NCBI GenBank assembly: GCA_001786575.1
Contig: MFRW01000005.1
Span: 23,581 to 87,580, forward strand
Direction of reading: 5' to 3'
DNA length: 64,000 nucleotides
Source: Candidatus Moranbacteria bacterium RIFCSPHIGHO2_01_FULL_55_24
Lineage (GTDB): Bacteria > Patescibacteriota > Minisyncoccia > Moranbacterales > UBA1568
Shown: positions 2,233-29,509 of the stretch, piece after piece
Numbering within the stretch: position 1 is the stretch's first letter
How the letters are laid out: every line of letters begins with the position of its first letter
Made by a program: the position numbers and the translations under genes
Notes under the pieces: model-generated
The model's database searches: none
What the model was told of the DNA's origin: nothing
What the model saw: only the letters and a program-made list of their open reading frames with translations

Positions 2233-2289
2233 CGTTTGCTTTTTCCTGGGATTTACGGGAAAGTAAAGGATACCTCTGTATTTTTTTCT

Positions 2290-3615
2290 ATGGGCGCGAT
2301 CAAGGTCAATCTGAAGCCGGTACTAGGTGCGATTCTCGTTGCAGGCTTTCTTTTCGCCTCTCTTCCTTGGACTGTCTCTGGCGCCGAAACCACCCAGAAT
2401 CTGGATAAAGCGCTCAAATCAGGGAAGAAAAATATCCAATTTTCCGGGAAAGAGAATGATGATGTGAAGATCCGCAAAGGGGTCGCAGTGATCGGCTCGA
2501 GCCCGGACAAAGCGATCATCAACGGCGACATCGAAATGGAGAACGGTTCGTCGCTTCAGAATGTGACAGTGAACGGGAATGTTGTTCCGATCACGGTCGA
2601 TAAAGGCGCAAGCGTCACCCTCATCAATGTGACGGTACGCGGCGGCAAGGATACGGGCATTTACGCTCCGAAGGGCGGAGGGACGCTTACCGTGAGAAAT
2701 TCACGGATAACCAAGAATCGCAAAGGTCTCTTTATCCTCGAAGGGAAAGCTCTACGGCTTTCCGGCAACCAGATTTCCGGGAACGGCGAGGAGGGCTTGG
2801 ATGTGCATGCGTTCGCGAGCGGTTCTATCGCGGGGAATACGTTTTCGGGAAACGGCGAGGGCGGCGCGGAGATCATCATCAACGGCTCATCGCTTACAGT
2901 TTCCGGAAATACTTTCAATGGAAACAAGTCGAGCGGACTCGCGCTTCAGACATACGGCGGGAGCAGCAAAGCGGGAAAAATTTCTATTAACAATAATACT
3001 TTCGTCGGAAACGGAAATTTCGGCATCGACTGCAAGAACCCGAGCGGCAGCGGGGGTCTCCAATATTTCCGGCAAACGGCGCGGGCAGTCGGGAACAAAT
3101 TTTCAGGGAACGGTCTCGGTCCGATCAGTCAGCGCTGCAGTTTCGGAAACCAGGCAGAAATTCCCAAGGAAGATATCGCGGAGAATGATAGTGAGACCGA
3201 GGAGTCACTGGAGACAGAAGAAGGAGAATTAGCGGAAGAAGCGGAAGTAGAGCAGATGGCTAAGGCAGGATCATTCCCCCAGCCAGGCATAGCAGAGAGC
3301 CTGTTGGTGGCAGCAGCCCGTTTCGAGGAGGATCTCGAAGCGGCGAATACTCCGAAAGCCAAATACGAGCGGGTCGTCTCCGGAGTTGATCGGGCATTCA
3401 TACGGGAAAAAGAGGCCGAACTGGAAGCGCTTCGCTTGGAGAAGAATAGCTGTTACGCCTCCGATGCGCTTGCCCAAAGGGATGCATGCACCGCGGATGA
3501 GGTGCGCATCATCGACGAGACGCTGGACTACGGAGAAATGCTTCTCCGAGAATCCCGAGACCGTTTCGGACTCTTCTCTTGGGAAACCCTTCGGGAAATC
3601 TTCTCTTCACGCTGA
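2290..3615 (+). CDS. secreted right-handed parallel beta-helix repeat protein with acidic C-terminal tail
   Basis: ATG at 2290 followed by a hydrophobic signal/anchor (LKPVLGAILVAGFLFASLPWTVSGAE). Repeated SGN/GNG beta-helix rungs (ISGNGEEGLDV, FSGNGEGGAEIII, FNGNKSSGLAL, FVGNGNFGIDC, FSGNGLGP). E/D-rich C-terminus. Confidence 0.55.
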   Translation: MGAIKVNLKPVLGAILVAGFLFASLPWTVSGAETTQNLDKALKSGKKNIQFSGKENDDVKIRKGVAVIGSSPDKAIINGDIEMENGSSLQNVTVNGNVVPITVDKGASVTLINVTVRGGKDTGIYAPKGGGTLTVRNSRITKNRKGLFILEGKALRLSGNQISGNGEEGLDVHAFASGSIAGNTFSGNGEGGAEIIINGSSLTVSGNTFNGNKSSGLALQTYGGSSKAGKISINNNTFVGNGNFGIDCKNPSGSGGLQYFRQTARAVGNKFSGNGLGPISQRCSFGNQAEIPKEDIAENDSETEESLETEEGELAEEAEVEQMAKAGSFPQPGIAESLLVAAARFEEDLEAANTPKAKYERVVSGVDRAFIREKEAELEALRLEKNSCYASDALAQRDACTADEVRIIDETLDYGEMLLRESRDRFGLFSWETLREIFSSR

Positions 3616-3616
3616 A

Positions 3617-4597
3617 TCAAGCTGACTTCTTCCGCTTGGCGTGGAAGGAGCGGTGGACTTCTTTGAGCCGCTCATTGGTGATGTGGGTGTAGACCTGGGT
3701 CGTGGTGATCGAGGCGTGCCCGAGCATCGCCTGGACGCTTCGGATATCGGCGCCATTTATGAGGAGATCGGTGGCGAAACTGTGGCGGAGCGTATGTGGG
3801 TGCACATCCTTCACGATGCCTGCTTTCTTGGCATAGTGCTTCACGAGGCGCTGGACGGTGCGGGGGGTGAGACGTTCCGTATCACGCTCTTTCGCCTTCT
3901 TTGTCTGCAAGCCCTTCTTCGGATAGCCGACGAAGAGCGCCGGGTCGATATCGGTCCGCTTATCGAGATAGGCTTTGAGGGCGAGCCTGGCATCGGGTGA
4001 GAGGAAGACGATACGCAGCTTGCTTCCTTTTCCGCGCACGCTGAATTCCTCCTTGTCGAGATTCACATGGTTCCGGTCGAGACCGATAAGTTCCGATACG
4101 CGGAGCCCGGAAGAGAACAGGAGCTCGACAATAGCGCGATCGCGCAGGCTTTTCGCGTCGATTCCTTGGGTCGCGGCGATGAGGCGCTCTACCTCATCGA
4201 ATTCCAGGAAGTCTACCTGGCGGTCCGGGATCTTGCCGACCTCGACCTTCTCGGCGGCGAGGGTGCTTATGTCCTGTTTGGCCAGGTATTTGAGAAATGT
4301 CCGGATGACGATCGCGTGGTAGGCCTGGGTATTCTTCTTGAGGGTCTCCCCGCGCCCGTTTTCCTTGCGATTCAGGTAGAGGCGGTATTCGCGGACTCGC
4401 CCGAAGGTGATATCTGCCGGGATTACGAGCTCTCCCCACTGGAAAAAATGTGAGAGCACCCTCCCGTAGCTCTCGAGCGTCCGGCGGGAGCGGTTCATCT
4501 CGATTTCCAGGTGGTCCAGGAACTCTTGGGCGAGCCTTTCGAGCTCGGTCCGGGGCTTCTTTTGTTTTTCTTTTTCCATGGTAGTATTATGCGACAT
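3617..4597 (-). CDS. tyrosine site-specific recombinase, XerC/XerD/phage-integrase family
   Basis: C-terminal catalytic motifs HTLRHSFATDLLINGADIRSVQAMLGHASITTTQVYTHI (R..H..R..Y). Core-binding N-terminal domain. ATG at 4597, with an alternative at 4579. Confidence 0.85.
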   Translation of the reverse strand: MSHNTTMEKEKQKKPRTELERLAQEFLDHLEIEMNRSRRTLESYGRVLSHFFQWGELVIPADITFGRVREYRLYLNRKENGRGETLKKNTQAYHAIVIRTFLKYLAKQDISTLAAEKVEVGKIPDRQVDFLEFDEVERLIAATQGIDAKSLRDRAIVELLFSSGLRVSELIGLDRNHVNLDKEEFSVRGKGSKLRIVFLSPDARLALKAYLDKRTDIDPALFVGYPKKGLQTKKAKERDTERLTPRTVQRLVKHYAKKAGIVKDVHPHTLRHSFATDLLINGADIRSVQAMLGHASITTTQVYTHITNERLKEVHRSFHAKRKKSA

Positions 4598-4677: not shown

Positions 4678-4706
4678 TTGACGGGAATCGGTCTCGGGGC
4701 TATACT
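4678..4706 (+). promoter_or_regulatory. sigma70-like promoter (TTGACG-17nt-TATACT) in the divergent intergenic region
   Basis: -35 TTGACG at 4678-4683 and -10 TATACT at 4701-4706, spacer 17 nt, AT-rich surroundings. Directed toward the LysM-CHAP gene. Confidence 0.45.
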
Positions 4707-4985
4707 TACCTTTGTAAAAATTAGGGTAAAAGCCTGATGGGTAGGAAATAAGCTTTTTTCGAAAAGCTCCTATTCTAAAGCTTTTTCCAATTGAAAGGCG
4801 CGATTCATATCCGCAATTTTCACCCGTTTTCCCATCGTGAGAGCGAGCAGGAAAACGATCTTCAGCACGGTACCAAAGGAAAGGAAAAAGTAGCCCTTGG
4901 GGACCGCTTGCATGGTTGGCATACCAAGTCGCACTACCTGCAGAGACGTCTGCTGACCTTCTTGAAGGATGTTTCGGGGTATCGG

Positions 4986-6071
4986 GTGGTCCGGGTCTTC
5001 CGGAATTACTCGGCTTTTTCTATCGTGGCGTCGAGCGCCCTTCTGGTCTCGGCAAGCAATTTCGCCCAGGGCCAGGATTCTTCCAGCGTTCTTTTGAGCT
5101 ACATCGGCGAAGATACCGCGACTGAAGACACGCTTTCTGCCAAGCATCGGATCGCCGCCCAGAGCGGCAAGAAAGAGAATCTGGCGCTGGTGCCCCTCGC
5201 TGACGCGTCTACGTCTGTCGATCCGGAACAGAAAGACAACACTTCTCTCTTCGATGTCGAAGCGCTGGCTTTCCAGAATCAAGTGATGCTCTCGACCCAG
5301 ACGGTCGATATGGCCAAGGATCCCGAAGAAGAGGGTGGTGTCACGATCTATACCGTCAAATCCGGGGACAATCTCGGCTCGATCGCAGAGAAGCATGGCA
5401 TTACGGTCAATACCATCCTCTGGGCGAACGACTTGGCGAATGCCGACGAGATCAAGCCTGGGGACCAGATCTTCATCCTGCCGGTAGCCGGCCTTTCCCA
5501 TGTGGTGAAGAGCGGCGAAACCATCGACTCTATCGCCAAGGAATACAAGGCCGATGCCGAGAAGATCATCGCTTTCAACAGCCTGCCGGCCAATGGCGAG
5601 CTCAAGATCGGCGACTCGATCATCATTCCGGATGGCAAAAAGGATGCTCCGAAGCCGGCTCCGAGCGATGAAACTGGGCTCGAACGCCGCCAGTATGCGA
5701 CTTCGACCGGCGGAACCGCTACGGATGTTTCCGGCTATCGGAAGCTCGAAGGCAAGGCGGGGGCCGGGCACCGCTTCCCTTACGGCTATTGCACCTGGTA
5801 CGTGGCGCAGAAACGCTATGTGCCATGGGGCGGCAATGCCGGAACCTGGCTCTACAATGCCAAGGCCATGGGCTACAGGACCGGCAAGGCTCCGGCTGTC
5901 GGCTCGATTGTCGTAACGACCGAGAACCGCTACTATGGCCACGTCGCTATAGTAGAGAAGGTGAGCGGCGGGATGATTACCGTGAGCGATATGAACTACG
6001 TGGGCTGGGGCAAAACCAGTCGCCGCACGCTCCCGGCAAATAGCCGCGTCATCAAGGGGTATATCTACTAG
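4986..6071 (+). CDS. peptidoglycan hydrolase: signal peptide, 2x LysM, C-terminal CHAP domain (candidate T4SS cell-wall hydrolase, PrgK/TcpG-like role)
   Basis: Two LysM repeats (YTVKSGDNLGSIAEKHGITVNTILWANDL...GDQIFIL and HVVKSGETIDSIAKEYKADAEKIIAFNSL...GDSIIIP). CHAP signature (YGYCTWYVAQKR...GNAGTWLYNAKAMGY...YGHVAIVEKV, Cys and His present). There is no in-frame ATG. GTG at 4986 gives a signal peptide (VRVFRNYSAFSIVASSALLVSASNFAQG). The first possible start is TTG at 4791. Confidence 0.7.
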   Translation: MVRVFRNYSAFSIVASSALLVSASNFAQGQDSSSVLLSYIGEDTATEDTLSAKHRIAAQSGKKENLALVPLADASTSVDPEQKDNTSLFDVEALAFQNQVMLSTQTVDMAKDPEEEGGVTIYTVKSGDNLGSIAEKHGITVNTILWANDLANADEIKPGDQIFILPVAGLSHVVKSGETIDSIAKEYKADAEKIIAFNSLPANGELKIGDSIIIPDGKKDAPKPAPSDETGLERRQYATSTGGTATDVSGYRKLEGKAGAGHRFPYGYCTWYVAQKRYVPWGGNAGTWLYNAKAMGYRTGKAPAVGSIVVTTENRYYGHVAIVEKVSGGMITVSDMNYVGWGKTSRRTLPANSRVIKGYIY

Positions 6072-6101
6072 GTAGATTCCTCATCTAAAGCGTGATTTTC
6101 C

Positions 6102-6129
6102 AGCCCGAGGCTTATCCTCGGGCTTTTCC
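6102..6129 (+). terminator. rho-independent terminator after the LysM-CHAP gene
   Basis: 9-bp perfect stem AGCCCGAGG/CCTCGGGCT, loop CTTAT, then TTTCC. Confidence 0.5.
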
Positions 6130-6150
6130 GCCTCTTTTATGCTGGAGGGC

Positions 6151-6179
6151 TTTACAAAAGTCGAAAAATATGCTATAAA
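6151..6179 (+). promoter_or_regulatory. sigma70-like promoter TTTACA-17nt-TATAAA
   Basis: -35 TTTACA at 6151-6156 and -10 TATAAA at 6174-6179, exact 17-nt spacer. Lies upstream of the small secreted protein gene. Confidence 0.45.
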
Positions 6180-6238
6180 GGGGGTACAAAGGTTCTTTTT
6201 CATGCTCTATCATGAGCACCAAGCCAAAGGAGGCTATC

Positions 6239-6562
6239 ATGAAACTGCGTGCAAGCTCATTGAGCGTCATCATTTCTTTCGGCCTCGCTGCAGCTGCTGT
6301 GGCCGGCGGTGCCAGCCTTTCCTCGAAAGATAAGGGTGGTCCTGCTTCTGCACAGAAGATCTCTTTCGTTTACAGCCAGGAAGAAGCAGAAAGGTATCGC
6401 TACAGAAGCGAACACTGTACGGAAGTGAATCAGGGTGTGAATTCTTCCCGGAGATACGGAGAAAAGCCTTCACGCTATGATTCGGATGAACAAGAGAAGT
6501 GCGCGTTCTATCAGGAGATCGAGCTGAAAGGTCTCCCTGTGGAAGCAGCAGTGAGTGAATAG
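6239..6562 (+). CDS. small secreted protein (signal peptide, 2 Cys), unknown function
   Basis: MKLRASSLSVIISFGLAAAAVAGGASLSS signal peptide. Has its own promoter and a strong downstream terminator. Longest ORF begins at 6212. Confidence 0.45.
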   Translation: MKLRASSLSVIISFGLAAAAVAGGASLSSKDKGGPASAQKISFVYSQEEAERYRYRSEHCTEVNQGVNSSRRYGEKPSRYDSDEQEKCAFYQEIELKGLPVEAAVSE

Positions 6563-6581
6563 GGACGGTCAACACGTCCGT

Positions 6582-6620
6582 AAGGAGGTAACTTGATTCT
6601 TCAAGAGACCTCCTTTTTTC
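6582..6620 (+). terminator. strong rho-independent terminator
   Basis: 8-bp perfect stem AAGGAGGT/ACCTCCTT around an 18-nt loop that is itself palindromic (CTTGATTCTTCAAG), followed by TTTTTTC. Confidence 0.55.
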
Positions 6621-6687
6621 TTTGCTTAACTATGGTATACTTGGTGTTGAGGTGCTCCATATCGGAAGGCGCTTTTCCTGGTTTGCT

Positions 6688-8895
6688 ATGACCATTTTCG
6701 AAAATAAAAAGAAAAGGAACGGAGTTCTCGCGCTAACGCTTGCTTTGATATTCTTTGCAGGCGTTTTTGTATTTTTTGGAGCAGGAATAGTACATGCTGA
6801 ATCAGGATCGGTGGGGTATAACTCTGCTGTGCAACTTGGAGAGGCGGCAGCGAGCAATAGCGGAGGGGGCATGTTTGGATGGATAAGAGATGGCGTGATC
6901 TATGCTTTTAAAACCGTTCTTTACTGGGTTTTTCAATTGATGGGATGGGGGGTGTCCGTGGCGGTCACAATCTTCGGTTGGGCGATCAATCCGGAATACG
7001 TCTCCGGCCCGAACGGTTTCTTCAATCTGCCGGCAGTATATGACATGTGGAAATTCGTGCGAGATTTCCTGAACCTCTTCTTTATTCTCGCGCTCCTTTT
7101 CGCGGCCTTCGCAACGATTTTCCAGATAGACAAGTACAGCTACAAGAAGATCCTCTTGAAACTCGTTATCGCAGCGCTCATGGTGAACTTCAGTTTCCCT
7201 ATCTCCCGAGCGCTCATCGATGTGACGAATGTCCCGATGTATTTTTTCGCGAATTCTTTGATAGCGGATACCAATAATCCGAGCGCAGCTTTTGGGTCAG
7301 CGTTAAGCGCTTCGAAATTAGAGAATATTTTAGTTCCGCCAGCAGCCCAAGATGATCTGGACAAGATTGATACGTCACGATTGCTCGCAGCAATCGTGTT
7401 CATGTTTCTGTTCGCAGTCACGCTTCTGGTGCTGGCTGTGCAGTTTATCATCCGTCTCATCGCGCTTATCATTCTCGTTATTCTTTCGCCGATCGGGTTC
7501 GTGATGCCGGCTGTTCCGGGACTCCAGAAGTATGGAGGGCAATGGTGGGATAATTTCCTGAAGTATGCATTCTTCGGCCCGGCGGCGATGTTCATGCTGG
7601 TGCTTGCGACTCACTTCTTTGATGCTATCGGCGGAGCGAATAGCGGCACGTATAAGAACTTTCAGGCGGCAAGCCAGACTTCTGCTGCTGTCAACAGTGA
7701 CTTCATCGCTTCCATGGCGATGTTCTCCATCCCGATCGTGATGCTCTGGTTCACTATCGGTATTTCCGGGAAATTCGCTATTGCTGGCGCATCGGCCTCT
7801 ACCGCTTGGGGATACAAGGCAGGCAATTGGGGCAAGCGAAAATTATATGACAACCGCATAGGCCGGGGATTGTACCGTGGCGGAAAGAAGGCTGTTAGCG
7901 AAGGGAAGATCGCCGGCTTTGACTACGGGAACAAGAGGCTGGGCAAATATCTGTCGGGCAACTATTGGAAGCAGCCGAGCAAGATTGAAGCTGGTATTGC
8001 CGGCGGTGTCTACGGAGGCAAGGCCGGTGCTCGCCAGGAAATCGATAACGAAAGACATAAAGCCGTACTTAAAAGGGCGAAAGAGATTAAGGAAAGCAAT
8101 GAGAGCAATGAAACGAATAGGATCGGTCTCAAATCTTCGAGTCTGGTCGAAAGACAGGCTCGCGCCCGGGCTTTGGCCGAGGCTGGAGCCATCAAGACTC
8201 CGGAACTTCTCCTCCAGGCTCTCGAAGCCAATAAGGATAATCAGGGAATTGTCGATAAGGAACTGCATGAGTTCGTGCAAGACAAGGCTCATTCCGATGC
8301 CTGGGACGGCGTATCCGACAGGTACAAGAAAGATCCGGAATTCAAGCAGAAATACGATGCAATGGTTGAGAATCCTTCTATGTATCTGCGGGATGAAAAA
8401 ACCGGAAAATATGTCGATCATAATGGCAAAGAAGTTGATGCGGAGAAGAGAGTCGCTAGCAGCGCGCTGGAAGGATTCTATAGCAAGATCAAGAAAGAAG
8501 GCGAACTTCAGGTACGCGTGGATTATGATGCCCAGCAGTTTATGAAGGCAGGCAAGTCCGAGAGTGAAGCCAAGAGCCTGGCGTATGAGAAGCACATCGC
8601 GAAATTGAGCGCTGATGACTTGGCAAAGCAGGGAAGCATACTGTCTGTCCTGAAGAAGATGGATGATAAGGGTGAGCCCAATAAGAATTATGATCCGGAG
8701 CTTGTCGACTACTTCAAAGGTAAAACCAAGGATGACCCGCAGTACTACCAGGAGGCTCTGAAGAAGATGAAGAAGGGGAGCCGTGAAATTTGGCGGCAAG
8801 CGATCGATGGAGTTCAAAAAGAACAAAAGGAGGGACTAAAAGAAGGGTCGCGCGAATGGGCAGAGGCTGAATGGAAAAAGAAGCAAGGGGCTTAA
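6688..8895 (+). CDS. VirB6/TrbL-like polytopic membrane protein with long charged C-terminal coiled-coil extension (PrgH/TcpH-like)
   Basis: ATG at 6688 with signal/anchor MTIFENKKKRNGVLALTLALIFFAGVFVFFGAG. At least 6 predicted TM helices (FLNLFFILALLFAAFATIF, LLKLVIAALMVNFSF, LLAAIVFMFLFAVTLLVLAVQFIIRLIALIILVILSPIGFVMPA, YAFFGPAAMFMLVLATHFF, MAMFSIPIVMLWFTIGISG). About 350 aa of K/E-rich hydrophilic tail. Extended -10 TGGTATACT lies just upstream (6633-6641). Confidence 0.6.
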   Translation: MTIFENKKKRNGVLALTLALIFFAGVFVFFGAGIVHAESGSVGYNSAVQLGEAAASNSGGGMFGWIRDGVIYAFKTVLYWVFQLMGWGVSVAVTIFGWAINPEYVSGPNGFFNLPAVYDMWKFVRDFLNLFFILALLFAAFATIFQIDKYSYKKILLKLVIAALMVNFSFPISRALIDVTNVPMYFFANSLIADTNNPSAAFGSALSASKLENILVPPAAQDDLDKIDTSRLLAAIVFMFLFAVTLLVLAVQFIIRLIALIILVILSPIGFVMPAVPGLQKYGGQWWDNFLKYAFFGPAAMFMLVLATHFFDAIGGANSGTYKNFQAASQTSAAVNSDFIASMAMFSIPIVMLWFTIGISGKFAIAGASASTAWGYKAGNWGKRKLYDNRIGRGLYRGGKKAVSEGKIAGFDYGNKRLGKYLSGNYWKQPSKIEAGIAGGVYGGKAGARQEIDNERHKAVLKRAKEIKESNESNETNRIGLKSSSLVERQARARALAEAGAIKTPELLLQALEANKDNQGIVDKELHEFVQDKAHSDAWDGVSDRYKKDPEFKQKYDAMVENPSMYLRDEKTGKYVDHNGKEVDAEKRVASSALEGFYSKIKKEGELQVRVDYDAQQFMKAGKSESEAKSLAYEKHIAKLSADDLAKQGSILSVLKKMDDKGEPNKNYDPELVDYFKGKTKDDPQYYQEALKKMKKGSREIWRQAIDGVQKEQKEGLKEGSREWAEAEWKKKQGA

Positions 8896-8913
8896 GAGAA
8901 TTTCAGGATACTT

Positions 8914-10104
8914 ATGGGAGGAAACAAAATAACAAAACGGATTTACTATCCCCTTCTCTCTTCAGAATCTCTGTCGGGAGGGGTTCAGGCTACGGAAGAG
9001 ATGTTGTCCGTATGGGATGCGTTCGATAAGATTGCTCCTGAAAAGCAGGATGTTTTGACGAGCGAAGAAATGCCTCAAAGAATCTCTGATTTTCAGGGCC
9101 AGCTGGGCGTGAGCGACCAGGAAATAGAGAAGTTGAGCATTCTGATCCGCAAGTATTTTTTCGGGACGTTGGATGGAGCGCAGTTTTCCGGAGAAGTTCG
9201 GACTCTTTTCGGCCAAAAAACAGAAGCGGAAAAAGAGAATGCTATAAAATATATCCAAAAAGAAATTTTGGAACTGAAACCGAAACCGAAAATTGTCGAG
9301 AAGGAAAACTTGCAAGAAACCCCGCAGAATAATTCCGTAGTGATATACCCACTTCTCCAAGCGCTTTCCAAATATGAAGGGCTTGGCAACCAGATGGTGA
9401 CGAACGAGCGCATTCACATCAAATCCCAGCCGGAGCCGGTCCGCCCGTCGCTTTTCAATTGGCTCAAATGCTACCGCGATGAGCTCGGTATCGGCCAGCA
9501 CAACAGCGTGCAGCGCGGGCAGTTCCTCTTCCGTTCCGAGAACGGCCGCCGCTTGAATCCCGAGGAGCGCGAGCGTATCAATCTGATACTGAAGTCTGTC
9601 GAAGAGAATTTCCCGCTCCAGATCGATGCACGCCGGCAGGAAATCATCTTCCCGAAGTTCGAGTTCGAGTCGGTCTCGGAGCGCCCGGCCCAGGAATCGA
9701 GAGACGCCTCTCCTCGGATAGAGCTCGCTTTCGGCGGGGCGACCTTCGCCAAAGGCCCGAGTTTCGATGCGCATGGAGAGAATGCAGAGAAAGCACCGGC
9801 ACCGCTTCCTCCTCGGGAAACAAAGAGCTCTGTACCGAACGGCAACCGGTTCACCGTTACGCGCGAGGCTCCGATGGGGAAGCTCCTCGGAGTGAAAGCT
9901 TTCCAAGAGACGGAGGAATCCCCAGCCGGAACCATGAGTTTCTCGTCGAGCCATACGCTCCCGGCAGAACAGGAAGAAAAAGTGCAAGCGACGGGTCAGA
10001 ATCAGGGAGCGAAATTGAAGCCACGGGAGATCAACCCCTTCCATATCCGCCCAGTCAGCCTAGGAGAGGAAAAGAAAAGCCGTAAAGAAACCTCACGCCT
10101 ATGA
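8914..10104 (+). CDS. hypothetical protein in T4SS-like operon
   Basis: ATG at 8914. Protein-like K/E-rich composition, unlike the R/L-rich antisense ORF 8962-10044. Its stop TGA overlaps the next start (ATGA at 10101). Confidence 0.5.
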   Translation: MGGNKITKRIYYPLLSSESLSGGVQATEEMLSVWDAFDKIAPEKQDVLTSEEMPQRISDFQGQLGVSDQEIEKLSILIRKYFFGTLDGAQFSGEVRTLFGQKTEAEKENAIKYIQKEILELKPKPKIVEKENLQETPQNNSVVIYPLLQALSKYEGLGNQMVTNERIHIKSQPEPVRPSLFNWLKCYRDELGIGQHNSVQRGQFLFRSENGRRLNPEERERINLILKSVEENFPLQIDARRQEIIFPKFEFESVSERPAQESRDASPRIELAFGGATFAKGPSFDAHGENAEKAPAPLPPRETKSSVPNGNRFTVTREAPMGKLLGVKAFQETEESPAGTMSFSSSHTLPAEQEEKVQATGQNQGAKLKPREINPFHIRPVSLGEEKKSRKETSRL

Positions 10105-10511
10105 TGTTCAATGTTCCGCAATTCATCGATGTCGAAGACAAGATCGCCGGTCCGCTTACCTGGCGCCAGATCCTCTGGATGATCGGGATGGGCGCGACGC
10201 TCCTCACGTTCTACAACCTTTTCGATAGCACGCTCTTCTTCATCATCTCTGTTCCGACGGTGCTTCTCTTCGCGGCTTTCGCATTCTATCGGCCCAATGG
10301 CATGTCGATGACCGCATTCTTCCTTCACGCGGTATTTTTCTTCTTCCGGCCGAAGGTTTCCGTGTGGGAGAGACCCGCGACTGTCCGGCGGATGCCGCAA
10401 GCGCCGAAGACATCGGAAAACGGGACCCAAGCGCCGCCAGCCGCGAAAGATTTGAGCGAAGATCGGCTGCACGAGTTGGCAAAAATCCTCGATCGGCATG
10501 GAAGAGTATGA
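10101..10511 (+). CDS. PrgI/VirB3-like small membrane protein (two TM helices) immediately upstream of VirB4
   Basis: Two TM helices (ILWMIGMGATLLTFYNLF; FFIISVPTVLLFAAFAFY). Size and position match VirB3/PrgI analogs. Translationally coupled to the upstream gene. Confidence 0.5.
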   Translation: MMFNVPQFIDVEDKIAGPLTWRQILWMIGMGATLLTFYNLFDSTLFFIISVPTVLLFAAFAFYRPNGMSMTAFFLHAVFFFFRPKVSVWERPATVRRMPQAPKTSENGTQAPPAAKDLSEDRLHELAKILDRHGRV

Positions 10512-10543
10512 CGGCAATAACCTGCGGATGCTAGAATAACGAT

Positions 10544-11224
10544 ATGGAATTCCTCAAACCAAAACAAAAAGCTGGCGCATCCAGCACGCAGCGCTACGTT
10601 GACGTCGAAGAAATCCGCGACGGCATCATCGTGCTCAAAAGCGGAGCGCTCCGTTCGGTGCTTCTCGTCTCTTCGCTCAATTTCGATCTCAAGTCGAGCG
10701 AGGAGCAGGATGCGATTATCAGCCAGTACCAAGCTTTTCTGAATTCGCTCGACTTCCCGATCCAGATCGTTGCGAGCTCGCGACGCTTCAATGTGGAGCC
10801 GTATCTGGAGCTCTTGAACGACAAAGAGGCCGTCCAGGAAAACGAGCTTTTGCGTTTCCAAATCGCGGAATACAAGAATTTCATCAAGAATCTGACGGAT
10901 GTCTCGAACATCATGTCCAAGTATTTCTATGTCGTCGTGCCGTTCTCGCCGTCGGAAGATGAGAGGAGCAGCTTCCTCGGGAAGCTGACAGGAATCTTCA
11001 ATCCGCAGAAAACCGTGAATCTCCACGGAGAGCTTTTCGAGACCTATCGGAGCCAGCTCTTCCAGCGTGTCGAACAGGTGACAGCAGCGCTTTCGGGTAC
11101 CGGAGTGCGGGCGACAGCACTCACGACCGAAGAGATCATCGAACTCCTTTATAACAGCTACAATCCATCGCTCTTCGCCACATCGATCATCAAGAACGTC
11201 GATGCGCTGGAACTGATAAAATAA
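10544..11224 (+). CDS. VirB4/TrbE/CagE family N-terminal domain (split from the ATPase domain by an in-frame TAA)
   Basis: RYVDVEEIRDGIIVLKSGALRSVLLVSSLNFDLKSSEEQDAIISQYQAFLNSLDFPIQIV matches the VirB4 N-terminal region. Same reading frame as 11231-13078, with a single TAA at 11222-11224. Confidence 0.6.
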   Translation: MEFLKPKQKAGASSTQRYVDVEEIRDGIIVLKSGALRSVLLVSSLNFDLKSSEEQDAIISQYQAFLNSLDFPIQIVASSRRFNVEPYLELLNDKEAVQENELLRFQIAEYKNFIKNLTDVSNIMSKYFYVVVPFSPSEDERSSFLGKLTGIFNPQKTVNLHGELFETYRSQLFQRVEQVTAALSGTGVRATALTTEEIIELLYNSYNPSLFATSIIKNVDALELIK

Positions 11225-11230
11225 ACACCC

Positions 11231-13078
11231 ATGGAGCCAGGAATCGTATTCACCGCCAAGGAAGAAGAGAAGCCCCCAAGCGACAAGAAGGGCTTGTTCC
11301 ATGCGGAAAAAGCGAGCGAGAGCGATCTCCTCTACCAGAAAGGCTTGGCGACGATCCGGGATCTCATCGCGCCGCCGGCGATCAAGATCACGCCGAACAC
11401 CATGCAGATCGGCGAAGTGGTGTCGCGCACCTTTTTCGTCATCGCGTACCCGCGCTACTTGAGCACCAACTGGTTTTCGCCGATCATCAACATCGACTTC
11501 CCGATGGACATCTCTCTCTTCATCCATCCGATCGATACGGCCGAGATCTTAAAGAACCTGCGCAAATCCGCGACCCAGGTGCAGTCGCAGATCCACATCG
11601 AGGCGGAGGGGGGCAAGATCCGCAACCCGGTCCTCGAAACCGCTCTCGAAGATATCGAAGGACTGCGGGACAAGCTCCAGCAGGGAACGGAAAAATTCTT
11701 CCGGTTCGGCCTCTACATCACGCTCTATGGAGCCGATGAGAAAGACTTAAACGAGAAGAGCCAGGCGATCGAGGCGCTTCTCGAAGCCCAGCTCGTCTAT
11801 ACCAAGCCGGCCGTCCTGCGGATGGACCAGGGATTCGCGGCGACGCGCCCGCTCGCCAACGATGTCTTGGATGTGGCAAACAACCTGAACACCGAGCCGC
11901 TTTCCACGACCTTTCCGTTCGTCTCCTCGGACCTTTCCTCGAACCAGGGCATCCTCTACGGCATCAACCGGCACAACAACAGCCTGGTCTTGTATGACCG
12001 TTTCAATCTGGAGAATGCCAACATGGTCGTGTTCGCCAAGTCCGGTGCCGGTAAGAGCTATATGGTGAAGCTCGAAGTGCTGCGTTCGATGATGTTCGGG
12101 ACGAGCGTTATCATCATCGACCCGGAAAACGAATACAAGCATCTCTGCGAGGCGGTCGGCGGCACGTTCCTCAAGATCTCGCTCAATTCCGAAGCGCGTC
12201 TGAACCCGTTCGATCTTCCGAAGCGCGTGGACGATGAGGACGGCGAGAGCGTGTTTCGGAGCAGCGTGGCGAATCTCATCGGCCTGCTCCACCTCATGCT
12301 CGGGACGGTCACACCGGAAGAAGACTCGATCCTCGACCGCGCCATCCGCGAGACCTATGCGCTCCGCGATATCACCGAGCACAGCGACTACCAGGGCCTG
12401 ACGCCCGAGGCGTTTCCTACGATGTCGGACCTGTACCAGGTACTCCAGAATATGGACGGTGCAGAATCGCTTGCCATGCGGCTCGAGCGCTATACCGAAG
12501 GAATCTTCGGCGGGTTCCTCAACCAACAGACCAATGTGTCTACCGAGAATCAGCTGATCGTTTTCAACATCCGCGACTTGGAGGACGAGCTCCGGCCGAT
12601 CGCCATGTACATCGTGCTTCAGTTCATCTGGAATGAGATCCGCTCGCAGATGAAGAAGCGCCTCGTCGTGGTGGATGAGGCCTGGGTCATGATGCAGAAC
12701 GAAGATGCGGCTTCGTTCCTCTTCGGAATCGCGAAGCGCTGCCGCAAATACTATGCGGGCCTGACCACGATTACCCAGGATATCAGCGACTTCATGGCAT
12801 CCCGCTACGGCAAGCCGATCATCACGAACTCATCGCTCCAGCTCCTCCTGCGCCAGTCGCCGGCGACTATCGATGCGGTGTCCGAGACCTTCTATCTGAC
12901 CGATCACGAGAAATTCCTGCTCCTGGAGAGCAACGTCGGAGAGGGGATATTCTTCGCCGGGACCAAGCATGCCGCGATCAAGGTGATCGCTTCCTATAGC
13001 GAAGACCAGATCATCACTTCCGACCCGCGCCAGCTCTTGGAAATCGAGGAAGCGAAGCGGGATTTCGGGTCTTCATGA
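11231..13078 (+). CDS. VirB4/TraC-type T4SS ATPase (middle and C-terminal ATPase domains)
   Basis: Walker A VVFAKSGAGKSYMVK. Walker B LVVVDEAWVMM. VirB4 middle-domain region IKITPNTMQIGEVVSRTFFVIAYPRYLSTNWFSPIINIDFPMDISLFIHP. Combined with the upstream fragment the length is about 843 aa, typical for VirB4. Confidence 0.85.
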   Translation: MEPGIVFTAKEEEKPPSDKKGLFHAEKASESDLLYQKGLATIRDLIAPPAIKITPNTMQIGEVVSRTFFVIAYPRYLSTNWFSPIINIDFPMDISLFIHPIDTAEILKNLRKSATQVQSQIHIEAEGGKIRNPVLETALEDIEGLRDKLQQGTEKFFRFGLYITLYGADEKDLNEKSQAIEALLEAQLVYTKPAVLRMDQGFAATRPLANDVLDVANNLNTEPLSTTFPFVSSDLSSNQGILYGINRHNNSLVLYDRFNLENANMVVFAKSGAGKSYMVKLEVLRSMMFGTSVIIIDPENEYKHLCEAVGGTFLKISLNSEARLNPFDLPKRVDDEDGESVFRSSVANLIGLLHLMLGTVTPEEDSILDRAIRETYALRDITEHSDYQGLTPEAFPTMSDLYQVLQNMDGAESLAMRLERYTEGIFGGFLNQQTNVSTENQLIVFNIRDLEDELRPIAMYIVLQFIWNEIRSQMKKRLVVVDEAWVMMQNEDAASFLFGIAKRCRKYYAGLTTITQDISDFMASRYGKPIITNSSLQLLLRQSPATIDAVSETFYLTDHEKFLLLESNVGEGIFFAGTKHAAIKVIASYSEDQIITSDPRQLLEIEEAKRDFGSS

Positions 13079-13091
13079 TTAAGAAAATGTT

Positions 13092-13613
13092 ATGGCTTTC
13101 GTGTCTGATTACGCTTCCGGGGAATCCCAAGATGAGGCACTTGCCCAAGAGCTCGAGTACCATACGCGCCTGACGGCGGAACTCCGCGCCCGGGCAGCGG
13201 CGCAGTCTTCTTACGAGACGGTTTCCTCCCAGATCGAACGGGTGAAAAAGAGCAAAGCGAGCCTTTTCGCGTACGCCCCGGCACTCCTCTTAGCCGCTCT
13301 GAAGGACACGCTCGATCTCGTCGCTATAGGCTCTATCCCGGTTATCGGGACGATAATCACGATCTGTGTCTCCTTTCTTATCTTCCTGTCTCTGCTTATC
13401 ACGCGAGCCAACAAAGATCTGATCGATTCGAGATTCGTTCTCCGCATGGGTATCGCCGTCATCGCCGGCTTCATCGTGGAGGGATTCTTCTTCGGGATAA
13501 ATTTCCTGCCGATCGAAGTATTCACGGTACTCGCTGTCCTCTGGATGGATAGACACTTGTCCGATGAGCAGATCCAGGCTTTTTCTGAAAAGGCGAAAAG
13601 CATGAAAAGGTAG
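13092..13613 (+). CDS. hypothetical membrane protein (3-4 TM) in T4SS-like operon
   Basis: ATG at 13092. Hydrophobic segments LLLAALKDTLDLVAIGSIPVIGTIITICVSFLIFLSLLI and MGIAVIAGFIVEGFFFGINFLPIEVFTVLAVLW. Confidence 0.5.
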   Translation: MAFVSDYASGESQDEALAQELEYHTRLTAELRARAAAQSSYETVSSQIERVKKSKASLFAYAPALLLAALKDTLDLVAIGSIPVIGTIITICVSFLIFLSLLITRANKDLIDSRFVLRMGIAVIAGFIVEGFFFGINFLPIEVFTVLAVLWMDRHLSDEQIQAFSEKAKSMKR

Positions 13614-13662
13614 GCGCGGATAGCTGTTTCCCTTCCGATATTTTTGGTATACTAGAGGAAAT

Positions 13663-14319
13663 ATGAGAACATTCTCGCTCGCAGAAAAAAAGTTTATCGG
13701 GACCAGCGCCCTGATTCTTTTCTGTCTCCTTTTCTTCGCTTTTTTCGAGGAGAGTTCGCAGTTGAGCGGGGTGCTCCAGGGTTTCATTATCGGTATCGTT
13801 TTCTTCTTGGTCATTCCGCTCGCGTACTGCAGGATGGTCTTGCGGGAGCCGCTTTCCAATATGGGGTGGCAAAGAGGAGAAGGTATCTTCGGGTTCTTTT
13901 GGCCGCTTCTCTCTGTCGCGATCGCCTTTGCGGGCATTTTCTTCCTTACGTGGCAGTTCCCGGCATTCGCAGAGGCGTATACGTTCCCGGTCGCGGTGGA
14001 GACGAACTTCCTCTGGTTCGTGCTTTATGAGCTCTTCATGGTCCCGTTCATCGTCCTCATCTACGAGTCATTCTTCCGCGGATTGGTGCAGATGCTCTGG
14101 CTCCAAGCGCTCGGCGCATGGGCGATTCTGGTACAGGCGGCGCTTTTCACAGGCCTGGTCTATGTGAGCGACGGCTTCACCTGGGAGACGCTCCCGCTTC
14201 TCGTCTTTGCGCCTTTTGCGGGGTATATCGCCTATAAGACGCACTCGCTCTGGTATGCATTTCTCGGAAGCTGGACATTTCTCTTTCTGACTGACGTACT
14301 CTTTTTGATTCTCCGTTAG
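13663..14319 (+). CDS. CPBP/Abi-like polytopic membrane protein (degenerate CAAX-protease motifs)
   Basis: 6-7 TM helices. IYESFFRGLVQ resembles CPBP motif 1 (EExxxR). Later motifs are not canonical. Preceded by extended -10 TGGTATACT (13644-13652). Confidence 0.4.
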   Translation: MRTFSLAEKKFIGTSALILFCLLFFAFFEESSQLSGVLQGFIIGIVFFLVIPLAYCRMVLREPLSNMGWQRGEGIFGFFWPLLSVAIAFAGIFFLTWQFPAFAEAYTFPVAVETNFLWFVLYELFMVPFIVLIYESFFRGLVQMLWLQALGAWAILVQAALFTGLVYVSDGFTWETLPLLVFAPFAGYIAYKTHSLWYAFLGSWTFLFLTDVLFLILR

Positions 14320-14336
14320 CCTCTAGCCTCAAAAAT

Positions 14337-17129
14337 ATGTTTACATTCGGAAAACGAAAAAAGACCCTTCTCGCTATCCTCATGGTCGGCCAGATGTTCA
14401 TAGGGAGCGCCCTGCCGGCTGCAGCGCTCTTCGGCGGGATCAAGATCCCGTCGGCATCCAAGGTGGTCTCGGACATCGAGAAGCGCTATCATATCGATCT
14501 TGAGAATGTCCAAGATCAGGGAGAGTTGTTCAATGTCCTTTCGAATAAACAGCCTGCTCCGGAGGTCTCTTTATTTTTCTCGCCGTCCGACCCTCGCCTC
14601 GGGGAGAAGATTTCTGCCAAGGCTTTTCCGGTTTATTTTATCAACAATGAAGAATCTCTCTATTACACATGGTACCTGAAGCGCGCTGATTGCGGACTGA
14701 CGAACTCCCCAAGCGCTGCGGTCAGGAGCGCTTGCGATCGGAATAATGATAACCGCATCACCGTAGAAGACTGGAAGATCGAGGCGGTGCGTATCATCGC
14801 CCAGAACGGCTATGACAATACCGCTACCAGCTACTCCTCGGACTCCGATGATGACGGCTATCGTGCGCGTTTCGGCGGCGATAACAGGGCGAATACGCCG
14901 GATTATTGCTACATCCACGACAATTCTTCGGGGAAGAATTACGAGCTGACAGACAGTTCTTCCGACACGAGTTTCTCCTGTCCGGCCGGGACAACTGCAG
15001 TGTGCGTGATCGAGGATGAAGGAGTCGAGCCGGGAGAGATCCCAGAGGGCACATTGGGAACCAGCAGCGCAAGCGATACGTTCGTTGTCGGCAATACCGA
15101 TGAGTGCAGCGTTTCGGGGCTTCCGGCCTGTACAACGAGCGGAACGCCTTCTTGCGGAACAGGAACGCCGCGCTGCGTCGCGAATCCGGAAAGCAATACT
15201 ACTTCCTGCGGTACGGCTTTGAGCACCTGCAGCACGACTTCTTCCGGTAATGCAGATCCTTCCTGCAAGCACCTTTTCCCGAAGGCTTCCGGCGCGACGA
15301 CTGGCGACGGGTCATTCAATGCGAGTGAAGAACGCTTCTGGGGAACCGACCCGAATGATCCGGACACAGCCGACAACGGCAACAAGGACGAAGCGAATGT
15401 CACCGGTCTCGGCCGTTCTACCTTCACCTGGAACTATGCGACAGGCGACCAGGTGGGCGTAGCGGTAGAAGGCACCTCGATGATCGCTACCAAGCATGAC
15501 AATTCTTCGGTGATGATCATGTGGGCCTTCGCCAAGAAGGACTGCCCAGTAGAGGATACCGGATCATATACCCAGTCCATCAAGAATTACAGCGTCGAGA
15601 TAGAGACGGCCGACATGGATCTCAATAATTGTCTGGAACGCAACCTCGTCGACCCGGCCCAAGGCGGCCAGGCGACGAATCTGGAAGTGGAAGTTTCGGC
15701 AACCCCGAATGAGCCGGTGAACGATGAGACCGGGGACGAGTCGGGCGATCTCGTCATCGCCCAGGCGAGCGTGAGCAATGGAGTCCAGGATTTGTCGAGC
15801 ATACTCTTCGATTGGAAGGTAGATATCAGCAATAATATCCAATTCAGTTCCTCGATCGGGCCAACCGCCGATGTCACTGCGGATCTTCGCAGTCTCTCGC
15901 TTTTGAGCAACGCGAAGGGGAATGCTCTGGACGCTGTCCGGCTGAAGCTTGATATTCCGCGGAGCGCGAGCTTGGGCGGCCGGCCGCTTTCGAGCTATCT
16001 TTCCGGAGATGTGGGGTATCTCCGCTTCACTTCCCGGGTGAGCGAGAATTTCTCGCAGGGAATCGCTCGCCAGGGGAGGAGCGATGTGATCGTGAAGTTC
16101 ACTTCCACCCAGAGGAAGATCGTCGCCTATAAGGCAGAACCGGCTCTCGTAGCAGGAAAGATGCAAGTGAGACTCCCTGCCAATGCCGGAGCCATCTGCA
16201 ATGATGATGCCTTGGATCGCAATGTCTGCCGTGTCGTCGAGAACGAAATCGTCGGCTTGAGCGTCGATGAGAATGATCTCACGAATTTCAATTGGACAAT
16301 CAATGGATCGCCGCTCCGCTGTTCCGCAAGCGCCGTATCGCCGGACTGCACCGACGGCCAGCAGAATGCGGTGAATTTCTTCCCGGTCACGGGGAACGTG
16401 GGCGATACCTACACGGTCACGCTCACGGCAAACGACGTGACGAATGGCAAGACCGTCACGCTCTCGCGCTCATTCAATATCGTCTCGCCGCAAGTACGGA
16501 TCGTTTCCGGCGATGAGAACGCCGCGTGGCCGAAATTCCTCGGCCAGTACAGGGATGTGACGGGGACAGCGACGGATTGCCCCGGAGGCCTCTGCGATGA
16601 TGTGAGCAAGAATGTCTTCGAAGCATTCTCCGGCGACAGCCTCACGCTCCAGGCGAAGTTTATCCCGAGCTTCCTCGCGAGTTCCGCCGAAAGGCAGTGG
16701 ACCATCGATAACGAAAACGTATCCGAGACCAGCCCGAACGAACTTGTCTTCCCGGCCGATAAAGCGCCCTTCATGGTCTACAATATCGGGCTCGCGGCCC
16801 GCGTGATGCAGTCCAACGATACCCGGAGGGCTCTCCTGGATATCTGGAATATTTCCCCGCTCGATTCGCCAGAAGTGCATTTCTCTTCAGGGATACAGAT
16901 CGAGCTCCAGGATCCGACTCTTGTCCGCGGCGATGAAACCCCGGTTCAGAAGTATCTGGCCGCTCTGGTATCGTATGTCCCGGCATCGCTTCTTTTCTCC
17001 TTCCGTATCCTTCTAAGCGGAGCGCTCATCCTCTTCGCCACCGGATTCGTGATGGCCATCCTGCCAGGCGGAAGAGCGGCCGAGGCGATTGCTCCAAGTC
17101 CGGGCAGATCCGGCAGAAACGATTGGTAA
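14337..17129 (+). CDS. large secreted Cys-rich/Ser-Thr-rich surface protein with C-terminal membrane anchor (candidate adhesin)
   Basis: Signal peptide MFTFGKRKKTLLAILMVGQMFIGSALPAAALFGG. Cys-rich block (CSVSGLPACTTSGTPSCGTGTPRCVANPESNTTSCGTALSTCSTTSSGNADPSC). Hydrophobic C-terminus (LLFSFRILLSGALILFATGFVMAIL). Confidence 0.6.
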   Translation: MFTFGKRKKTLLAILMVGQMFIGSALPAAALFGGIKIPSASKVVSDIEKRYHIDLENVQDQGELFNVLSNKQPAPEVSLFFSPSDPRLGEKISAKAFPVYFINNEESLYYTWYLKRADCGLTNSPSAAVRSACDRNNDNRITVEDWKIEAVRIIAQNGYDNTATSYSSDSDDDGYRARFGGDNRANTPDYCYIHDNSSGKNYELTDSSSDTSFSCPAGTTAVCVIEDEGVEPGEIPEGTLGTSSASDTFVVGNTDECSVSGLPACTTSGTPSCGTGTPRCVANPESNTTSCGTALSTCSTTSSGNADPSCKHLFPKASGATTGDGSFNASEERFWGTDPNDPDTADNGNKDEANVTGLGRSTFTWNYATGDQVGVAVEGTSMIATKHDNSSVMIMWAFAKKDCPVEDTGSYTQSIKNYSVEIETADMDLNNCLERNLVDPAQGGQATNLEVEVSATPNEPVNDETGDESGDLVIAQASVSNGVQDLSSILFDWKVDISNNIQFSSSIGPTADVTADLRSLSLLSNAKGNALDAVRLKLDIPRSASLGGRPLSSYLSGDVGYLRFTSRVSENFSQGIARQGRSDVIVKFTSTQRKIVAYKAEPALVAGKMQVRLPANAGAICNDDALDRNVCRVVENEIVGLSVDENDLTNFNWTINGSPLRCSASAVSPDCTDGQQNAVNFFPVTGNVGDTYTVTLTANDVTNGKTVTLSRSFNIVSPQVRIVSGDENAAWPKFLGQYRDVTGTATDCPGGLCDDVSKNVFEAFSGDSLTLQAKFIPSFLASSAERQWTIDNENVSETSPNELVFPADKAPFMVYNIGLAARVMQSNDTRRALLDIWNISPLDSPEVHFSSGIQIELQDPTLVRGDETPVQKYLAALVSYVPASLLFSFRILLSGALILFATGFVMAILPGGRAAEAIAPSPGRSGRNDW

Positions 17130-17165
17130 GAGGCTTGTCTGCAAGAAAAATAAAGAAAAATAAAA

Positions 17166-17194
17166 CCGAGGCACCGTAACGCCTCGGTTTTTTT
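17166..17194 (+). terminator. rho-independent terminator at end of T4SS-like operon (abuts tRNA-Leu 3' end)
   Basis: Stem CCGAGGC/GCCTCGG with an 8-nt loop, followed by TTTTTTT. Confidence 0.6.
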
Positions 17195-17195
17195 G

Positions 17196-17278
17196 TGGGC
17201 AGGGAGGGACTCGAACCCTCATTTCACAAGGAAACTAGTTCCTAAGACTAGCGCGTATACCAATTCCGCCACCTGCCC
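17196..17278 (-). tRNA. tRNA-Leu (anticodon TAG)
   Basis: Reverse complement folds as GGGCAGG acceptor, anticodon stem CTAGT / loop CTTAGGA / ACTAG, long variable arm, and T-arm GGTTCGAGTCC. Confidence 0.8.
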
Positions 17279-17382
17279 GAAATTATAGCGTCTACTGATT
17301 CCCTGCCCGAAACGCTCCGCTCGCTAGGGGGATAGAGTATCTGTCAGGGTATCGGTGCGGGTGTGCACCATCCCGGCAAGAA

Positions 17383-27290: not shown

Positions 27291-27302
27291 CTTTTAGGAA
27301 CG

Positions 27303-29434: not shown

Positions 29435-29460
29435 AATTTGAGACGAGCGCAAAGAAAAAA

Positions 29461-29490
29461 GCGGTGAGTACAGATGTACTCGCCGCTTTT
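29461..29490 (+). terminator. rho-independent terminator at end of pilin array
   Basis: Stem GCGGTGAGTAC/GTACTCGCCGC (one mismatch), loop AGAT, then TTTT. Confidence 0.55.
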
Positions 29491-29509
29491 AGTTGGGTTG
29501 AAGCAGAAT

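Follow-up and report, generated by a model that had tools for sequence, protein, structure and literature searches.

The closest described relatives of the locus studied here are the chromosomal type IV secretion systems (T4SSs) of the Patescibacteria. In Southlakia epibionticum, Wang et al. 2023 describe a locus (SEML1_0006-0019) that includes a VirB6-like protein, PrgI, a protein in the position of TrsD, VirB4, hydrolases and six pilins; by their account it is, pilins included, essential for epibiotic growth in transposon sequencing (Tn-seq) and is without recognizable coupling or relaxase proteins (PMC10633639). According to the survey of 3,035 genomes by Quinonero-Coronel et al. 2025, Patescibacteria VirB4 proteins form a monophyletic clade nested in the FATA class of mating-pair formation systems (MPF-FATA), and homologs of TrsD, VirB3, VirB6 and VirB1 lie near virB4 together with arrays of VirB2; relaxases are recorded in only 103 of the 3,035 Patescibacteria genomes and VirD4-like matches in 2,918, mostly distant from virB4 (PMC12102498). 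That survey covers class Paceibacteria, and its Table S1 has Moranbacteria RIFCSPHIGHO2_01_FULL_55_24 as VirB4-positive (PMC12102498). A 2025 review stresses the same features (PMC12857230), and the function of the patescibacterial T4SS has been called "completely unknown" (PMC11665869). Here we analyze a T4SS gene cluster in a 64,000-nucleotide stretch (the window) of the genome of RIFCSPHIGHO2_01_FULL_55_24, a Candidatus Moranbacteria member (GenBank assembly GCA_001786575.1, contig MFRW01000005.1, positions 23,581 to 87,580 of the forward strand). Few machines have been shown to be indispensable to the epibiotic lifestyle of these ultra-small bacteria, and the patescibacterial T4SS is one of them.

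In this groundwater genome, the cluster is the already described chromosomal, relaxase-less Patescibacteria T4SS and no new kind of system. Our reading, with a probability of roughly 0.85, is that it encodes a Patescibacteria-clade chromosomal T4SS (Moranbacteria, class Paceibacteria) with a monoderm MPF-FATA, pGO1/pSK41-like conjugation ancestry, whose link to DNA processing has been lost. The features of the clade found here are a CD1110-type VirB4, an adjacent TrsD, PrgI, a pilin array and a chromosomal location with neither a relaxase nor a type IV coupling protein (T4CP) in the locus; a putative VirB6 may be a further one. The core consists of 10 co-directional plus-strand genes (4791-17129) with intergenic gaps of 6-140 nt and one 4-nt overlap (Table 1). 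The original prediction, made from the sequence alone, described a contiguous co-directional cluster closed by a strong terminator, which agrees with this tight operon and the hairpin behind it, and counted eleven genes where we find ten; the eleventh was probably an overlapping open reading frame (ORF) at 6139-6333.

Table 1. Features of the T4SS locus and its surroundings in window coordinates, with the median identity of each product over 80 related loci
Feature	Positions	Strand	Evidence and remarks	Median identity (%)
VirB1-type cell-wall hydrolase, two LysM and a C-terminal CHAP domain	4791..6071	+	Pfam LysM 2.7e-24, CHAP 5e-18	63
116-aa ORF with signal peptide	6212..6562	+	No homolog in the 80 related loci	
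Extended VirB6/TrbL-like polytopic membrane protein	6688..8895	+	At least 6 transmembrane (TM) segments; K/E-rich C-terminal tail of ~330 aa (TM scan)	37
396-aa soluble protein (u396)	8914..10104	+	Always between the VirB6 and VirB3 genes	40
PrgI/VirB3-like membrane protein	10101..10511	+	Pfam PrgI 2.5e-12, 47.6 bits vs cut-off 27	53
TrsD, free-standing VirB4 N-terminal domain, 226 aa	10544..11224	+	NCBIfam TrsD 2.6e-8 (below curated cut-off)	70
VirB4 ATPase, C-terminal P-loop part	11231..13078	+	NCBIfam CD1110 family 2.5e-108, 363 bits vs cut-off 325	80
173-aa protein (m173)	13092..13613	+	N-terminal cytoplasmic segment and 3 TM helices (TM scan)	36
CPBP/Rce1-like 6-TM protein	13663..14319	+	Pfam Rce1-like 6.1e-6, 26.9 bits vs cut-off 22.4	46
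930-aa surface protein (s930), 20 Cys	14337..17129	+	N-terminal helix, Ig/FN3-like beta-sandwich repeats, two C-terminal TM helices	52
VirB2-like pilin domain fused to SLT lytic transglycosylase, 361 aa	26205..27290	+	Pfam T4SS_pilin 1.2e-7, SLT 6.5e-6	
VirB2/TrbC-like pilin, 93 aa	27306..27587	+	Pfam T4SS_pilin 5.3e-7, TrbC 2.3e-6	
VirB2-like pilin, 129 aa	27638..28027	+	Pfam T4SS_pilin 2.6e-9; followed by hairpin and T-run 28051-28080	
VirB2-like pilin, 132 aa	28121..28519	+	Pfam T4SS_pilin 1.1e-11	
301-aa protein with signal peptide, Cys-rich region and two tandem pilin domains	28529..29434	+	Pfam T4SS_pilin 3.3e-23 over 2 stretches	
Terminator hairpin	29460..29491		After the last pilin gene	
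Promoter-like site TTGACG-17-TATACT	4678..4706	+	5' of the first gene; 10/12 consensus matches, consensus match only	
Intrinsic-terminator hairpin, bidirectional	17162..17191	.	13-bp stem, A/T runs on both sides; between operon end and tRNA-Leu	
tRNA-Leu	17195..17278	-	Abuts the operon-end hairpin	
Tyrosine recombinase (Xer), Phage_integrase family	3617..4597	-	Divergent, directly upstream of the operon	70
UvrD				61
CCA enzyme		-		68
IF2		-		73
NosD/beta-helix repeat protein with acidic coiled C-terminal part	2236..3615		Between UvrD and Xer	
FtsK	from 61696		4TM, alpha, motor and gamma domains	
Wall/cell-surface gene group	48014..53865		Members listed in the text	

VirB4, predicted as one gene, is encoded here by two ORFs, a free-standing N-terminal domain (TrsD) and a C-terminal P-loop part. 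The latter contains a Walker A (GAGKS) and a Walker B (VVVDEAW) motif and is matched to both TrsE and PrgJ at 99.8% in hhalign. It has at least 8000 homologs. Identity among the 120 best matches listed is 78-88%, and every named one of these belongs to Patescibacteria, Moranbacteria or Minisyncoccota, a patescibacterial placement based on nearest relatives by identity. TrsD also matches positions 101-280 of VirB4_plasma at 3.6e-10 and, in a newer Pfam annotation, the TraC-like family PF26593. The two genes share a reading frame, in which a TAA codon (11222-11224) and ACACCC precede the VirB4 ATG (window 11222-11233). TrsD and VirB4 are separate ORFs in 76/76 relatives and occur there in all three relative frames at equal frequency; the split is therefore an ancestral trait, not a lesion. 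We could thus rule out the TAA as a read-through site, a recoding site or a pseudogene lesion, the shared frame being a coincidence. The PrgI/VirB3 gene, predicted earlier and now matched by Pfam well above the cut-off, is present in 73 related loci.

The order PrgI-TrsD-VirB4 in the window is colinear with trsC-trsD-trsE, the arrangement of the pGO1/pSK41 subclass rather than of the pCF10 Prg type. The parts list had been likened to the conserved core of Gram-positive Prg-type conjugative systems; a monoderm-type T4SS it is, but with a Trs-like order. The conjugative Trs systems of staphylococci (pGO1/pSK41 and pIP501-type), an MPF-FATA subclass that has TrsD, share with the locus the colinear trsC(VirB3)-trsD-trsE(VirB4) genes with a split VirB4, a CHAP hydrolase (TrsG) and a TrbL-type VirB6 (TrsL). 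In contrast, pSK41 is a plasmid with the T4CP TrsK, the relaxase Nes, an origin of transfer (oriT), the topoisomerase TrsI and SSB, none of which are found here; homologs of its TrsA, TrsF, TrsH and TrsJ were not detected at our locus, and it has neither a pilin array nor counterparts of the four orphan proteins (u396, m173, the CPBP-like protein and s930). The likeness to the Prg/Pcf system of the Enterococcus faecalis plasmid pCF10 (NC_006827) lies in the PrgI family, the VirB4 protein PrgJ, the CHAP protein PrgK and a monoderm make-up with no VirB7, VirB9 or VirB10. Unlike our locus, pCF10 has a single full-length VirB4 and no TrsD, its PrgH has no detectable match to the VirB6-like protein, and it carries the adhesins PrgA, PrgB and PrgC, the VirB8-like PrgL, the T4CP PcfC and the relaxase PcfG, all absent here.

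Comparison with the Southlakia T4SS reveals the same chromosomal setting, the same order VirB6-like-PrgI/VirB3-TrsD-VirB4, hydrolases, a diverged VirB2-like array and a locus with neither relaxase nor T4CP. The two differ 3' of VirB4, where Southlakia encodes a 1113-aa DD-peptidase protein, a lysozyme/Cys-protease protein and a PEGA protein, whereas our locus encodes m173, the CPBP-like protein and s930. The pilin array also lies 9 kb away from the core here, unlike in Southlakia, and the NTF2/VirB8-like SEML1_0012 of Southlakia (non-essential) has no counterpart that we found at our locus.

The "minimal" label given to the cluster does not hold, as a five-gene pilin array with a pilin-SLT fusion belongs to the system. 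The five VirB2-like genes (26205-29434, 9 kb downstream of the core) encode six T4SS_pilin domains, each of which scores above the Pfam cut-off; their mean identity is 37%. In a divergent Moranbacteria subclade (L079-L087), the pilins stand beside the ATPase genes in a block pilin-double pilin-PrgI-TrsD-VirB4-m173 (e.g. L080 7355-11806), with a second block, UvrD-Xer-LysM/CHAP-VirB6, 4-6 kb downstream and IF2 upstream. The fullest layout occurs in two distant loci (L092, L093), which read VirB6(-like)-u396-PrgI-TrsD-VirB4-small TM protein-CPBP-like-s930-T4SS_pilin, with LysM-CHAP first in L093. Since a pilin gene directly follows the s930 homolog in these distant loci and pilins lie beside PrgI-TrsD-VirB4 in the subclade, gene order indicates that the core operon and the pilin array are one system. 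As the pilins are joined to the core in relatives, the layout in the window is a derived one, the pilin genes having moved away. The order pilin-VirB3-TrsD-VirB4 of L079-L087 equals trsB-C-D-E of pSK41, in which TrsB (L089 25115-25432) matches Pfam T4SS_CagC (8.4e-15) and TrbC/VirB2 (9.8e-5). These matches place a VirB2-like gene just upstream of trsC-trsD-trsE in at least the pGO1/pSK41 subclass and bear on whether the patescibacterial pilins were inherited rather than co-opted.

The predicted LysM-CHAP hydrolase was likewise recovered by Pfam and is syntenic in 50 related loci; its CHAP domain is matched to pSK41 TrsG at 98.8% and to pCF10 PrgK at 96.7% (hhalign). The longest ORF starts at TTG 4791, and an in-frame GTG at 4986 is a possible start that would give a signal-peptide-like N-terminus. 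The usual monoderm "VirB1" has two domains, SLT and CHAP (PMC12102498). With the SLT domain in the pilin-SLT protein and the CHAP domain in the LysM-CHAP protein, this function is divided in the window. The locus is a clean Paceibacteria/Moranbacteria example of a divided "VirB1" function combined with a pGO1/pSK41-like order and, in relatives, a pilin in the position equivalent to trsB.

Behind the hydrolase gene, the small secreted protein of the original prediction does exist as a 116-aa ORF with a signal peptide, but it falls outside the conserved set of parts: we found no homolog among the 80 related loci and no Pfam or NCBIfam family match. In most relatives the VirB6 gene directly follows LysM-CHAP with nothing in between. 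With 0/80 loci carrying a homolog and the position empty in most relatives, the ORF was ruled out as a core subunit or pilin. At the place where the window has this ORF, five relatives (L011, L021, L023, L048, L060) have variable inserts of 1-2.3 kb, and a recurring ORF pair of ~90 aa and ~205 aa, the latter beginning "MLHKEILS...", is seen among such inserts.

For the next gene, whose longest ORF begins at TTG 6622, the evidence for a VirB6-like protein is weak but consistent. The call, made earlier as VirB6/TrbL-like, is based on a TrbL_3 match in the newer Pfam annotation, an hhalign match to pSK41 TrsL (E 1.6e-4, 50.7%) and matches among its homologs, of which 8/37 match NCBIfam CD3337/EF1877 (best 4.6e-6), two match pLS20_p028 and one matches TraJ, all below cut-off. 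Topology and gene position fit VirB6. On the other side, a separate Pfam scan matched no TrbL/VirB6 model to the window protein or its 36 homologs, and a profile search of PDB sequences returned nothing.

To assess inheritance, we compared one genome per species, 80 loci in all and all of the Moranbacteria type. The order UvrD-Xer(-)-LysM/CHAP-VirB6-u396-PrgI-TrsD-VirB4-m173-CPBP-s930-CCA(-)-IF2(-) is kept over these species loci, and VirB4 is more conserved than IF2, the CCA enzyme and UvrD (Table 1). This conserved synteny with housekeeping genes and the identity of VirB4 above that of IF2 mark the cluster, as judged from sequence comparison, as a vertically inherited and strongly constrained cell machine and not a mobile or decaying element. 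A Phage_integrase-family gene directly upstream on the opposite strand and a tRNA gene at the other end are what would be expected of an integrated conjugative element, with the recombinase as its integrase, that is now a decaying remnant stripped of its DNA-processing genes. We give this explanation hardly any credence: every gene is intact, VirB4 retains its 80% identity across species, no flanking direct repeats were found, and the GC content (0.50-0.55 over the cluster vs ~0.55 elsewhere) is close to that of the flanks. Synteny also extends to UvrD, the CCA enzyme and IF2, and to the recombinase itself, which keeps its place in 49 loci with 70% identity, as one would expect for XerC/D.

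We searched for the DNA-processing parts of a conjugative system. The newer Pfam annotation of contig 3240-78838 (75.6 kb) contains no T4SS-DNA_transf, TraG-D_C, TrwB or relaxase family, an absence that covers ~76 kb of the ~789-kb assembly (~10%). Searches by tblastn with PcfC, TrsK, PcfG, Nes, PcfD and PcfF returned no match with an E-value of 0.01 or below across 1.65 Mb of window and related loci, and no oriT-like inverted or direct repeats were found in 3500-17400. The sole FtsK-like ATPase of the window has the domain set of a genuine FtsK (Table 1). All of this agrees with what had been predicted for the window, namely no VirD4-type T4CP, relaxase or oriT-like repeats and an FtsK that is no coupling protein. 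Within the region examined, none of the T4CP, relaxase, oriT and VirB8-like subunit of a conjugative MPF-FATA system is present.

A working conjugation system with its T4CP, relaxase and oriT at other places in the genome would be compatible with the tenth of the assembly that was inspected and with T4CP genes often lying far from virB4, as do most of the VirD4-like matches of the survey. Several observations nevertheless make it very improbable: relaxases are rare among the surveyed Patescibacteria genomes, the distant t4cp homolog of Southlakia is reported as non-essential while its T4SS is essential, no similarity to a T4CP or relaxase occurs in the 1.65 Mb around virB4 in relatives, and housekeeping synteny over 80 species with conservation above IF2 is unlike a mobile element. 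The earlier proposal of a T4SS-derived apparatus in an ultra-small Patescibacterium that is probably used for something other than conjugation is thus supported, and it matches the accounts in PMC10633639, PMC12102498 and PMC12857230.

Four products of the core operon have no counterpart in pSK41. Three of them (u396, m173 and s930) match no Pfam or NCBIfam family, as foreseen for the 396-aa protein. The cytoplasmic u396 protein has no TM segment, and an AlphaFold2 (AF2) model from a 51-sequence alignment contains a helical domain (10-120) and an alpha/beta domain (140-250), both confident, followed by a disordered tail. A VirB8-like NTF2 fold had been suggested as a check for this product, and the AF2 domain picture does not support it; no VirB8-like NTF2-fold subunit of the PrgL, TraM or TcpC type was found at this locus. 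The two membrane proteins that had been predicted, one of them CPBP-like, are both present. The first, m173, is syntenic in 52 loci and also occurs in L093. Its identification as a pilin, PrgF, TcpE or VirB8 was rejected, since no hhalign probability exceeded 1.3% in comparisons with the pilins of the window and with every protein of pCF10 and pSK41.

The CPBP-like protein was checked for the three catalytic motifs of CPBP/Rce1 metalloproteases (EExxxR, FxxxH and HxxxN/D). E135, F137, F138, R139 and G140 are invariant in 63/63 homologs, so that ExxxR(G) alone is kept, and both His motif positions (FxxxH, HxxxN/D) are hydrophobic or variable in these homologs. Because neither His motif is conserved, the protein is probably a member of the family by fold and not a canonical CPBP protease, and it may represent a non-catalytic CPBP fold.

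The Cys-rich surface protein s930 agrees with its earlier description, and its predicted model, at a predicted local distance difference test (pLDDT) score of 79.8, begins with a helix, continues as a string of beta-sandwich domains and ends in two TM helices. A search for a specific fold match returned generic Ig/FN3 sandwiches only. Clustering of 1.84 billion proteins at 50% yields 487 representatives of the family, with conserved C-terminal ~600 residues and a variable N-terminal part, and homologs are 48-66% identical among the matches listed, which is high for an adhesin.

The CPBP-like and s930 genes stay paired even in distant genomes, and in relatives the trio m173/CPBP-like/s930 lies between VirB4 and a pilin gene. 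One locus (L090 9342-14977, on the 922-kb contig JGI Ga0451577_0000003) encodes a CPBP-like protein, a 1271-aa s930 homolog and a pilin-domain protein, with no VirB4 within 10 kb; the module lies near rpmH-rnpA-yidC and is flanked by Wzy_C and glycosyltransferase genes. Another (L091) reads VirB6(TrbL_3)-u396-PrgI-TrsD-VirB4, followed by a 211-aa ORF without a match to any family or window protein, and an s930 homolog. A 1015-aa MshEN/T2SSE (PilB-like) ATPase gene (L091 14924-17971) is immediately downstream of that T4SS cluster, so that type IV pilus and T4SS genes are adjacent there.

We see an even chance that u396, m173, the His-less CPBP-like protein and s930 are subunits of the patescibacterial T4SS that are specific to an order or class and have so far gone unrecognized. 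The portions of the patescibacterial T4SS literature available to us make no mention of them. As the CPBP-like/s930 pair stands beside a VirB2-like pilin gene even where VirB4 is distant, it may form a pilus-anchoring or host-contact module that stands in for the VirB8 and adhesins of monoderm systems, which are missing here. The four conserved orphan genes, foremost this pilin-linked CPBP-like/Ig-repeat pair, are concrete candidates for those extracellular parts of the machine that are still missing and constitute the modestly new element of the locus.

From these parts we propose how the machine might work. TrsD and VirB4 together would form the membrane-associated ATPase, which PrgI/VirB3 would dock onto the VirB6-like channel. 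Local opening of the peptidoglycan would fall to the LysM-CHAP peptidase and the pilin-SLT muramidase, and VirB4 would pull VirB2-like pilins, of which five diverged genes are on hand, from the membrane and polymerize them into a pilus or tube. The lineage-specific trio of m173, the CPBP-like protein and s930 could supply the envelope-spanning or host-contacting part, which monoderm systems get from adhesins. The assembled machine would then touch the host cell and carry material for epibiotic growth, a host-interaction function extrapolated from the Tn-seq essentiality of the homologous Southlakia epibionticum locus. Cytoplasmic substrates would have no coupling protein to recruit them, and we therefore favor a role in uptake or as a pilus and conduit over classical export of effectors or DNA.

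T4SSs that are chromosomal, non-conjugative and without T4CP or relaxase include Helicobacter pylori ComB (DNA uptake) and Bordetella pertussis Ptl and Brucella VirB (protein secretion). Unlike the present system, all three belong to the diderm MPF-T class, in which VirB7/9/10 form an outer-membrane core, and are related to it in sequence only at the VirB4, VirB3, VirB6 and VirB2 superfamily level; any analogy would be functional only.

By analogy with ComB or the archaeal Ced system, the machine might take up DNA or nucleotides to feed a cell unable to make nucleotides, a role proposed in a PNAS perspective. The lack of T4CP and relaxase resembles ComB, VirB4 has a weak CedB match (3e-15, far below cut-off), and the neighborhood includes RecA, FtsK and a ComM-like gene, all of them, however, housekeeping genes. 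We regard such uptake as rather unlikely, as the cluster contains no recognizable DNA-binding component and a comEC deletion in Southlakia is reported to abolish competence with viability unaffected, while the T4SS is essential; any uptake would thus have to be ComEC-independent.

Translocation of effectors into a host bacterium, either T4CP-independent via Sec as in Ptl or direct as in Brucella VirB, has precedent in the T4CP-less protein-secreting systems, and protein export or an alternative role is favored by Wang et al. 2023 (PMC10633639). We hold this analogy to be possible but doubtful for our locus, where the cluster encodes no recognizable candidate effector or chaperone and its sole variable small secreted ORF is the non-conserved one at 6212-6562.

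Several points weigh against the reading of the locus as a Patescibacteria-clade T4SS detached from DNA processing. The inspection for T4CP and relaxase extends over ~10% of the genome, and in most Patescibacteria the survey places VirD4-like matches far from virB4. The VirB6 call draws on matches below curated cut-offs, next to an empty Pfam scan. Polymerization of the pilins is a prediction from gene content, and the CPBP-like protein is without its catalytic His motifs. The four orphan proteins may be encoded by merely co-transcribed genes rather than be subunits. The function is taken over from another class, Saccharimonadia, in which other genes stand downstream of VirB4.

Some observations concern the surroundings and the comparison set. 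The NosD/beta-helix repeat protein is found in only 7/80 related loci, which identifies it as a variable insertion beside the conserved cluster. Many GTDB species-representative records titled "uncultured Bdellovibrionales bacterium" (L010, L012, L014-L016 and others) carry the Moranbacteria-type cluster with its housekeeping synteny, and these titles look like mislabels. Farther downstream in the window, the wall/cell-surface gene group comprises a DUF4012 gene (minus strand), a DUF975 gene, a gene for a 639-aa LTD/PKD-repeat protein (minus strand), two small ORFs and an Amidase_2 gene.

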